Shown one piece after another: positions 13,760 to 54,670 of a stretch of 64,000 nucleotides of DNA. A program made the position numbers and the translations under genes. Location: assembly GCA_951406725.2 (NCBI GenBank), contig OX597837.1:33604001-33668000 (forward strand), written 5' to 3'. Each line of letters starts with the position of its first letter. Position 1 is the first letter of the stretch. This DNA is from Octopus vulgaris (lineage: Eukaryota). The notes under the pieces were generated by a model, which had not been told where the DNA came from, ran no database searches, and saw nothing but the letters and a program-made list of their open reading frames with translations.

Positions 13760-13806
<47 letters not shown>

Positions 13807-14145
13807 ATATATATATATACACACACATACATAAATATATATATGTATATATATATACATTATATATATATATATACATATATATACATTATATATGTAT
13901 ATTTATATATACATTATATATATATATATATATGTATATTTATATATACATATATATACATTATATATATATATGTATATTTATATATACATATATATAC
14001 ATTATATATATATATATGTATATTTATATATATATATATATATGTATATTTATATATACATATATATACATTATATATATATATATGTATATTTATATAT
14101 ACATATATATATATATATATATTTATATATACATATATATATATA
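13760..14145. repeat. (TA)n-based compound micro/minisatellite
   Basis: Visible directly. Confidence 0.95.
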
Positions 14146-14312
14146 CTTTATTTAAAAGAGTTTCATGTTCCCGTTCATCGGACAGTTTTGTTAAAACTCC
14201 GAGTAACAGGTTTTGTTGAATTTCTGCTGCTTTAAATAAAGCATATTACTCTACCACTGGTATTTGAGTACTCTTTTTTCCACCTTGTTTCACATTTATA
14301 TGTTTACTCCAG
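14146..14312. mobile_element. Penelope-like pLTR remnant in inverted arrangement, carrying a split hammerhead ribozyme motif
   Basis: Left arm read on minus: aacaaaactgt-ccgatga-acg-ggaa-cat-gaaa-ctc...tttaaataaagtat; right arm on plus: aaactccgagtaacaggttttgtt...tttaaataaagcat; embedded in (TA)n. Confidence 0.65.
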
Positions 14313-14568
14313 TATATATATATATATATATATATATATAGGTAGATATAGATATCTCGAAGTATATGTAAGGTATACTTGTTGACTGTTTGTACTATTT
14401 TTGATGGTACTGCAGTTGTTACTGCTAGTACTACTACTACGAATATATTCACTGTACACCTGTTCTCATATAAATAAATAAATATATCTATATATAAACA
14501 CACACACACTATTGCTGTTAGTGAAACTCATGTTATTCCTTCTGTTACTACACAAATCTATCTATCTA

Positions 14569-14960
14569 TCTATATCTTTATATATAAAAGTGAAGTTGTG
14601 TGTCTGTCTCCTACGATTTAGATTCCTAACTACTCTCACATTTTGCGGTACAGTTTAACCAAAAGCGGGTATCTTATAGTCGTGATTCATATCGAGCCCT
14701 TCTGGGTATTAGTGCGCGTCTACGATTTAAAAAAAAATTTACCATAATTTTTTTCCATTTTAATGCATTTTTTCGCTATTATATAAGGGAAGTAACTTTC
14801 TAAAAATGTCTACGATGAGTCAACGATTTATAAAAAAATTTACCATAATTTTTTTTCACTTTTAATGCATTTTTTTGCTATTTTTTGGCTATAACTCTCT
14901 AAAAATGCTTATATAGTTATTTCCCTTGCAAATCCGAGCAACGCCGGGCGATACTGCTAG
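14569..14960 (+). mobile_element. Non-autonomous Helitron, second 5' type, with internal ~90-bp tandem duplication
   Basis: TC start, ends ccgagcaacgccgggcgatactgCTAG before T; last ~130 bp match 3150-3279. Confidence 0.8.
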
Positions 14961-15239
14961 TAGATATATATATATATTCATATATACATACATACACATG
15001 CACAGTTACTATTGGTGCTGTTTCTGTTACACACACACCACTCTTACTATTACTGTTAGTAATGCTGTTATTACTGTTGGTGCTACTACCACCACTACCC
15101 TACCACCACCAACAACAACAACAACAACAATTCTGCTATTATTACACAATGGTATCATTATTCCATCTACCTTCAAACAACAACCATCTGCAACCTTTTG
15201 TAATGATGGCAGTGGAGCCGTTGTGCCGATAGTAATAAT

Positions 15240-46314: not shown

Positions 46315-47835
46315 ATAAAACAACCTTGCCTGGACTTGTGCCTCAGAGGGTAACTTTCTAGGTGCAATCCCATGGTCATTCATGACTGAAGGGGGTCTTT
46401 ACCCTTTACCCTATGTACATATAGTGGTGCAGAGAGGGGAGGCTGGTATGCATGGGTGACTGCTGGTCCTCCATAAACAACCTTTCCTGGACTTGTGCCT
46501 CAGAGGGTAACTTTCTAGGTGCAATCCCATGGTCATTCATGACTGAAGAGGGTCTTTACCCTTTACCCTATGTACATATAGTGGTGCAGAGAGGGAGGCT
46601 GGTATGCATGGGTGACTGCTAGTCCTCCATAAACAACCTTGCCTGGACTTGTGCCTCAGAGGGTAACTTTCTAGGTGCAATCCCATGGTCATTCATGACT
46701 GAAGGGGGTCTTTACCCTTTACCCTATGTACATATAGTGGTGCAGAGAGGGGAGGCTGGTATGCATGGGTGACTGCTAGTCCTCCATAAACAACCTTGCC
46801 TGGACTTGTGCCTCAGAGGGTAACTTTCTAGGTGCAATCCCATGGTCATTCGTGACTGAAGGGTGTCTTTACCCTTTACCCTATGTACATATAGTGGTGC
46901 AGAGAGGGGAGGCTGGTATGCATGGGTGACTGCTAGTCCTCCATAAACAACCTTGCCTGGACATGTACCTCAGAGGGTAACTTTCTAGGTGCAATCCCAT
47001 GGTCATTCATGACTGAAGGAGGTCTTTACCGTTTACCCTATGTACATATAGTGGTGCAGAGAGGGGAGGCTGGTATGCATGGGTGACTGCTAGTCCTCCA
47101 TAAACAACCTTGCCTGGACTTGTGCCTCAGAGGGTAACTTTCTAGGTGCAATCCCATGGTCATTCATGACTGAAGGGGGTCTTTACCCTTTACCCTTTAC
47201 CCTATGTACATATAGTGGTGCAGAGAGGGGAGGCTGGTATGCATGGGTGACTGCTAGTCCTCCATAAACAACCTTGCCTGGACTTGTGCCTCAGAGGGCA
47301 ACTTTCTAGGTGCAATCCCATGGTCATTCATGACTGAAGGGGGTTTTTACCCTATGTACATATAGTGGTGCAGAGAGGGGAGGCTGGTGTGCATGGGCGA
47401 CTGCTGGTCCTCCATAAACAACCTTGCCTGGACTTGTGCATCAGAGGGTAACTTTCTATGTGCAATCCCATGGTCATTCATGACTGAAGGGGGTCTTTAC
47501 CCTTTACCCTATGTACATATAGTGGTGCAGAGAGGGGAGGCTGGTATGCATGGGTGACTGCTGGTCCTCCATAAACAACCTTGCCTGGACTTGTGCCTCA
47601 GAGGGCAACTTTCTAGGTGCAATCCCATGGTCATTCATGACTGAAGGGGGTCTTTACCCGTTACCCTATGTACATATAGTGGTGCAGAGAGGGGAGGCTG
47701 GTATGCATGGGTGACTGCTGGTCCTCCATAAACAACCTTGCCTGGACTTGTGCCTCAGAGGGTAACTTTCTAGGTGTAATTCCATGGTCATTCATGACCA
47801 AAGGGGGTAGGAGGGGGGTCTTTCCCTTTTACTCT
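46315..47835 (+). repeat. 157-bp tandem array (about 9.6 units) derived from a SINE 3' end
   Basis: caacctt starts at 46321, 46478, 46634, 46791, 46948, 47105, 47269, 47419, 47576 and 47733. Confidence 0.95.
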
Positions 47836-53894: not shown

Positions 53895-54670
53895 TACCTC
53901 ATACTCTACTCAATGAGAGCTTTACCTCATACTCCACTCAGTGAGAGCTTTACCTCATACTCCACTCAGTGTGAGCTTTACCTCATATTCCACTCAGTGT
54001 GAGCTTTACCTCATACTCCACTCAGTGAGAGCTTTACCTCATACTCCACTCAGTGTGAGCTTTACTTCATACTCCACTCAGTGAGAGCTTTACCTCATAC
54101 TCCACTCAGTGAGAGCTTTACCTCATACTCCACTCAGTGAGAGCTTTACCTCATACTCCACTCAGTGAGAGCTTTACCTTGTACTCCACTTGGTGAGACC
54201 TTTACTTCATATACCATTTGGTGAGAGCTTTACCTCATACTCCACTCGGTGAGAGCTTTACCTCATACTCCACTCAGTGAGAGCTTTACCTCATACTCCA
54301 CTCAGTGAGAGCTTTACCTCATACTCCACTCAGTGAGAGCTTTACCTCATACTCCACTCAGTGAGAGCTTTACCTCATACTCCATTCAATGAGAGCTTTA
54401 CCTCATACTCCACTCAGTGAGAGCTTTACCTCATACTCCACTCAGTGAGAGCTCTACCTCATACTCTACTCAGTGAGAGCTTTACCTCATACTCCACTCA
54501 GTGAGAGCTTTACCTCATACTCCACTTGGTGTGAGCTTTACCTCATACTCCACTCAGTGAGAGCTTTACCTTGTACTCCACTCAATGTGAGCTTTACCTC
54601 ATACTCCACTCGGTGAGAGCTTTACCTCATACTCCACTCGGTGAGAGCTTTACCTCGTACTCCACTCAGA
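53895..54670. repeat. 28-bp minisatellite (tttacctcatactccactcagtgagagc), about 27 copies
   Basis: Exact 28-bp period, e.g. 53921 and 53949; no spacers. Confidence 0.96.

Follow-up and report, generated by a model that had tools for sequence, protein, structure and literature searches.

At 14146–14312 of the window, which is the whole 64-kb stretch of DNA analysed here, lies an unremarkable dead remnant of a Penelope-like element (PLE), flanked by (TA)n. We give a probability of about 0.88 to the reading that it is a dead, 5′-truncated, two-armed insertion of a Hydra-clade PLE, likely made by two primings, in which the halves of a type I hammerhead lie on opposite strands after a loss of 31 bases. 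The layout of the insertion is given in Table 1.

Table 1. Features of the two-armed insertion and its flanks (positions in the window)
Feature	Positions	Strand	Remarks
Left target flank	13760–14145	.	degenerate (TA)n, 196 copies of TA, 81% matches
pLTR short 3′ end	14146–14157	minus	terminates in AAATAAAG, followed by (TA)n; the first of the family's two ends
31-nt deletion site	14157–14158	minus	missing from direct arm: loop 3, stem III 3′ strand, cleavage triplet, stem I 3′ strand
Type I hammerhead 5′ half	14158–14192	minus	stem I 5′ strand, U4C core, stem II, GAAA, stem III 5′ strand
Head-to-head inversion junction	14193–14196	.	A-run common to both arms (microhomology); same junction in four sister copies
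Inverted arm, 5′-truncated inside GAAA	14194–14217	plus	palindromic stem III, GUA triplet, stem I 3′ strand
Remaining pLTR to short-end position	14218–14241	plus	
71-nt tail	14242–14312	plus	5′ UTR start of next tandem unit; second family-wide end
Right target flank	14313–14355	.	(TA)n

Origin of the split hammerhead

Direct reading bore out both hammerhead halves that the initial annotation had described, namely the stem I 5′ strand, CCGAUGA, ACG-GGAA-CAU and GAAA-CUC on the minus strand (14158–14192), and AAACUC-C-GAG-UA with the stem I 3′ strand on the plus strand (14194–14217). The end motif that it had seen in opposite orientations in the two arms is also present, as inverted AAATAAAG ends (arms 14141–14156 and 14231–14246) with (TA)n on both sides. 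We further agree that this copy is unable to fold into a hammerhead: when both strands were folded, either one was predicted to form a long arm-to-arm hairpin and no whole hammerhead. Stem II of the locus copy has a GNRA loop and one CpG change, and the predicted cut position in the inverted arm is after 14205 (plus). A descriptor of the whole hammerhead motif found none anywhere in the 64-kb window; Rfam gave no match at gathering over the window, and none of the 17 weak matches at E≤10 is a hammerhead.

The source genome was searched in full (2.8 Gb, 227 contigs). There were 1428 first-look candidates, and 40 of these 1428 were scored, at 87–98% identity. In the genome, an exact degenerate pattern built for the joined motif in the locus copy's subfamily matched 1052 places and its reversed control none, so that the joined motif is not due to chance. 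Exact counts of the whole motif reached 2381 with the U4C core and 3781 with the canonical CUGA, and the controls gave zero. In whole copies, three stems surround the conserved core in the predicted fold, which is that of a type I hammerhead, and stem II is 2–3 bp long. Joined copies of the locus copy's subfamily were linked by tblastn to an endonuclease in 8 of 30 loci, seven of them on the strand of the hammerhead, and in L291 to a near-full ORF; ORF-linked copies are present for every subfamily state. The check for contiguous halves in other copies, which the initial annotation had proposed, thus found them contiguous and linked to an ORF with RT plus a putative GIY-YIG part, and with thousands of such copies the proposed origin from a microsatellite-targeting, hammerhead-bearing PLE holds.

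The sister loci that were listed (29 were taken) share the layout of the locus copy, but their minus-side arm continues through stem III, GUA and stem I to AAATAAAG. Compared with the aligned copies that have the same junction (L002, L003, L009 and L017), the locus copy lacks exactly 31 nt after 14157, and positions 1–12 of the query were covered in register by no other of the 40 scored copies. The two halves are therefore on opposite strands because one arm carries a private 31-nt deletion and the other is 5′-truncated. The deletion is private to the locus copy and could have occurred at insertion rather than later. A ribozyme that is bipartite by construction was accordingly rejected; the earlier description of a ribozyme split over two arms is right for this copy and wrong as a design, the short-ended arm normally holding the whole motif. 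The copy is a relic, but the family is more than that, its youngest subfamily having intact ORFs and a canonical core.

Among the first 100 of the 1052 joined motifs, read by eye, 89 had CCGACGA, seven CCGATGA and four CTGACGA, and three had CAT for CGT. As 89 of 100 copies are CCGACGA, U4C is the master state of the subfamily, and the U7 and CAU of the locus copy are CpG decay; an explanation of U4C itself as decay of the locus copy was rejected on the same ground.

Parent element and its protein

Walking upstream led to L067, a full element with an inverted pLTR, a direct pLTR, a broken ORF, a 3′ UTR and a pLTR. With the RT of L067 as query, 146 places were scored, of which 42 had a 727-codon open frame by eye. 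In all 20 copies picked for this frame there is a 711-aa ORF, giving 14 distinct proteins, one of them common to six copies; a hammerhead lies ∼3146 nt after the start codon in 20 of 20 and 209 nt before it in 17 of 20. The unit of the element is thus about 3.36 kb, with a hammerhead in each pLTR. Near-identical intact copies suggest recent activity of the youngest subfamily, as far as sequence can tell. The tail at 14242–14312 runs on into the ORF in L067 and in L104–L123, and is 93% identical to the young element. The partial tandem with pLTRs, the inverted 5′-truncated copy and the tail at one end are features of PLEs.

Pfam matched no family in the broken or the intact ORF, and a PDB sequence search with the ORF protein returned one irrelevant match (E 1.3). 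The structure model of the 711-aa protein has a pLDDT of 84.6, and telomerase RTs hold ranks 1, 2 and 4 in Foldseek (E 5e-9 to 5e-8); the modelled fold points to a single ORF with a telomerase-like RT, as in EN+ PLEs. In the C-terminal part we read by eye VVY...YTG followed by R, H, E and N. These motifs and the published description make this part a putative GIY-YIG endonuclease, with no Pfam match. Of the motifs of the Hydra clade, RWK lies near residue 37, and DKT takes the place of DKG near 114. The linker CxCX5C reads CNCKNESSC. There is no C between VVY and YTG, so the CCHH cysteines inside GIY-YIG are absent, and CRLC (CxxC) and CRH (CxH) stand around the endonuclease E and N. The flanks of the fetched loci show the (TA)n target. 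The pLTR of the young subfamily carries a canonical CUGAUGA hammerhead, and the older subfamilies, including the locus copy, carry U4C. By its motifs, its target and the hammerhead in the pLTR, the parent is most readily classed as a Hydra-clade PLE.

Shared with the Hydra clade as described by Craig et al. 2021 (PMC8557442) are RWK, DKT, CxCX5C, the missing CCHH, CxxC/CxH, the (TA)n target, the type I pLTR hammerhead and the inverted 5′-truncated copy with tail. Different from the elements described there, which are mostly <3 kb with a tail of typically 30–40 nt, the unit here is 3.36 kb and the tail 71 nt; the tendency to <3 kb, which the unit of ∼3.36 kb does not follow, is given in that paper as no strict criterion. 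The coral Hydra-2_aMil (file S2 of PMC8557442) shares the inner stem I, the ACUC-N-GAGU stem III and the GUA triplet, whereas Hydra-1_oBim has another hammerhead and hence belongs to another family. The Hydra cores that S2 lists all read CUGANGA, and none is U4C, which the descriptor of that study would miss.

Like the PLE hammerheads of Cervera and de la Pena 2014 (PMC4209133), those found here are of type I in both pLTRs, have a palindromic stem III and a predicted dimer activity, and truncated copies give close pairs of motifs on opposite strands. However, the published ones have a long stem II and a short stem I, where ours have a stem II of 2–3 bp and a long stem I; the G10.1-C11.1 pair is absent here, and the core variant is U4C rather than U3-A8. 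A two-pair stem II is common among hammerheads according to Perreault et al. 2011 (PMC3088659), who also cite a viroid U4C hammerhead with considerably lower activity in vitro that was sufficient in vivo. The substitution is the same, but here it has become fixed in a lineage of retrotransposons that numbers thousands of copies. Animal non-LTR retrozymes (PMC7229834; Li et al. 2026, 10.64898/2026.07.22.740005) likewise have a type I hammerhead and a link to PLEs; they are described as tandem non-coding units, whereas the locus here is the truncated end of an ORF-bearing element. A literature search covering sources outside subscription journals and Repbase, some of them in part, found nothing on the family or on a U4C core in PLEs; a consensus may exist, for example in the Craig supplement. 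As far as the searched literature goes, the family appears to be a new one within the known Hydra-type PLEs.

Among 7996 scored database entries, 1074 were relatives, the best at 58%; more than 1000 full-length relatives with 43–58% identity are in metagenome assemblies. Judged from these sequences, the 27 families listed in 2021 are a small part of the Hydra clade. One Hydra-like metagenome element (46% aa) has tandem CUGAAGA hammerheads around its ORF, at L284:265 and L284:3024; they are 2759 nt apart and their stem III is palindromic.

In L104, a pyrimidine run and TAG, resembling a splice acceptor, stand directly 5′ of stem I; the same is seen in the young and middle subfamilies. In the Penelope of Drosophila virilis, the 5′ end of helix I marks the end of an intron (PMC4209133). 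A search of sequencing runs listed no RNA run with the sequence. Contigs of four runs guessed to be RNA span the pLTR-ORF junction, with no joint and no clustered end, although ends and strand are not readable from such contigs.

Ends, junctions and formation of the arms

The element has two fixed ends, the short one (AAATAAAG) and that of the tail, which reaches 71 nt beyond it into the 5′ UTR of the following unit. Among 51 head-to-head pairs (L124–L253), 49 combined a short with a tail end, two were tail plus tail, and none was short plus short. The 5′ ends were sampled without requiring the ribozyme, using exact 33-mers from the sequence downstream of the cut site, which matched 737 old-type places (70 loci examined) and 3027 young-type places (30 loci examined). 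Break points were taken from x-drop alignment to flank-free references, where an overshoot of a few bases is possible in A/T runs. Of 79 old arms, six ended at the predicted cut, 24 inside the core, 47 at 34–53 nt upstream and two beyond; for 29 young arms, the numbers were 0, 9, 12 and 8, respectively. The interval 34–53 nt upstream of the cut corresponds to the stem I 5′ strand and its edge. Since few arms end at the triplet, the templates were mostly uncut there, and the cDNA probably stopped or was joined at the 5′ edge of the hammerhead. Self-cleavage as the process that sets the 5′ ends was rejected, as there is no excess at the cut site (6/79 old, 0/29 young). The junctions often fall on short palindromes and differ widely among copies. 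In L136 and L143/L144, tail ends are repeated with (TA)n between them and three or four pieces of hammerhead are present, as if priming had been repeated or the template had been jumped.

In the proposed mechanism, the element protein would nick both strands of (TA)n, and cDNA would be started on uncleaved pLTR RNA at two sites separated by 71 nt, so that two reverse-transcription events, primed from both strands of the cut TA repeat, likely gave the two arms. Both cDNAs would usually stop in or just past the hammerhead and then join through short palindromes or A/T runs. Full elements may form a double hammerhead via the palindromic stem III and cut weakly, probably with the help of protein; the U4C core would have been tolerated in the older subfamilies, since insertion presumably does not need efficient cleavage. 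Priming from both (TA)n strands is the best inference because of the results of Frangieh 2024 on a Poseidon PLE (PMC11167929), where the PLE protein cuts and extends both target strands, the tail is delimited by two RT start sites, hammerhead mutants insert normally, and cleavage needs protein. The Poseidon PAc of Anolis in that study and the element here both have two fixed ends that delimit the tail, AT-rich targets and no ends at the cut site. Poseidon PAc differs in belonging to another clade and in its canonical core, ORF start sites and tail of 30–40 nt, compared to 71 nt in the 5′ UTR here.

The same two ends would also result if a single tail-primed cDNA folded onto a palindrome of the hammerhead region, served as its own template and was then resolved at the short end. 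Stem III, stem I and the adjacent TTAA/CTAG are candidate palindromes for such a fold-back; junctions do lie at palindrome centres (stem III in L173, L180 and L191; CTAG in L235, L244 and L251), and in L008 both arms of the insertion carry the same private change. However, the arms differ in 5′ extent, the tail arm being the shorter, in the locus copy and many others, an outcome not expected from simple fold-back, and large two-armed insertions with kilobase arms exist; we regard the fold-back as unlikely, though it deserves to be taken seriously. The pile-up of arm ends may alternatively reflect the 5′ end of the RNA, if a promoter or a splice acceptor lies where the hammerhead begins.

Far less probable is that a non-autonomous palindromic element resembling a MITE or retrozyme is copied as a single unit of 200 nt. 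The junction of the locus copy is indeed exactly matched in four of the best-scoring sisters and many copies are of similar length, but those four were chosen as best matches from >1400 candidates and the junctions otherwise vary widely. The same arms extend into the 3′ UTR and ORF elsewhere, with every subfamily state linked to the ORF, and no tandem unit of 150–400 nt occurred in the loci examined; at the locus itself, the tandem-repeat search found no tandem non-coding unit of 150–400 nt with a hammerhead. We give next to no credence to a functional bipartite ribozyme, in which the minus transcript would act in trans as the enzyme strand on plus or element RNA. Although the classical enzyme half survives in the minus arm (stem I 5′ strand with core, stem II and GAAACUC), the 31-nt loss is private to this copy, stem II contains a C.A mismatch and the core is of the U4C type. 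Moreover, each strand has its own arm-to-arm hairpin, opposite-strand transcripts would pair end to end, and there is no sign of selection or expression. Two primings on uncleaved RNA remain our preferred account of the two arms.

History of the ribozyme core

A tree was built from 465 nt of endonuclease DNA in 70 copies, chosen by similarity searches from three seeds, with duplicates and rows of >10% gaps dropped; 16 of the 70 rows are without a linked hammerhead. Its shape is a ladder with an age gradient, in which the locus copy's subfamily falls in the old U4C steps and CUGAUGA is youngest. Taking terminal branches as a proxy for age since insertion, the medians are 0.035 for 15 copies with a GGAA loop and C4, 0.021 for 15 copies with a GCAA loop and nearly all C4, and 0.005 for 24 CUGAUGA copies; terminal length and distance from the youngest tip correlate with a Spearman coefficient of 0.84. 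The majorities of eight ladder steps (50 of 51 loci usable) are C4 in the five older and U4 in the three younger. The youngest generation thus likely reverted the U4C core to the textbook CUGA, judging from these sequences.

Along the ladder, the ribozyme changes at only 5 of 38 positions (U4, N7, one loop 2 base, 11.1 and loop 3). One of 29 constrained positions changed vs four of nine free ones (Fisher p 0.0075, a guide only, since the steps are related), leaving 28 of 29 invariant; the oldest and youngest steps differ at 30 of 142 upstream bases and at 53 of 155 third codon positions. Conservation of the tail equals that of the ribozyme, so the constraint may in part come from promoter or protein-binding roles. 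In the young subfamily (L104–L123), stem II consists of two G-C pairs with a GNRA loop and an A.A mismatch at 10.1/11.1; along the ladder its closing pair passed from A-U through A.G to A.A, while the core appears to have returned to canonical. In five of six subfamily examples, a double-hammerhead fold was predicted within 0–1 kcal/mol of the dimer minimum; in the last C4 step, a competing fold in which the core is trapped was predicted to be 5.6 kcal/mol more stable, and the two changes on the following branch would abolish this trap.

Outgroup rooting on single copies leans against the polarity from C4 to U4, as it weakly grouped the C4 subfamilies without the young one (support 53 and 76). 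With step majorities, the best root lies at the oldest end, and the AU test rejected none of six roots (p 0.08–0.67); the nearest outgroup matched the old state at nine and the young state at 12 of the differing sites. At slightly under even odds, we tentatively propose that one Hydra-PLE master lineage transposed for long with U4C while keeping the other constrained positions, passed through a predicted misfolding step, and then regained CUGAUGA before today's burst. In this reading, the U4C phase would span ∼0.3 substitutions per site of endonuclease DNA and have left at least 2381 exact copies. If true, the lineage would be a dated natural series in which the hammerhead was kept mainly as a fold and its cutting power was lost and regained; the fold would then serve as a place where reverse transcriptase stops or joins, and half of the arms do end there.

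PLE hammerheads are of low activity in vitro, and in the one reconstituted system insertion proceeds without them. The lineage provides fossil ribozyme variants in series, some having the canonical core and others lacking it, along with intact, nearly identical young elements for biochemical work on a clade new to such assays, and holds thousands of insertion junctions that inform on where reverse transcription starts and stops.

The window also contains a 390-nt repeat (14575–14962), which starts with ATC-TTTATATATAAAA, and ends with a GC hairpin and CTAG within an AT-rich flank; its minus-strand 3′ end is at the 14962 side, as read on plus. By its termini, it resembles a non-autonomous Helitron-type element. 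The same repeat adjoins the 3′ end of L104. Two young tandem arrays lie further along, at 46318–47808 (9.5 copies of 157 nt, 95% matches) and at 53895–54669 (27.7 copies of 28 nt, 92% matches).
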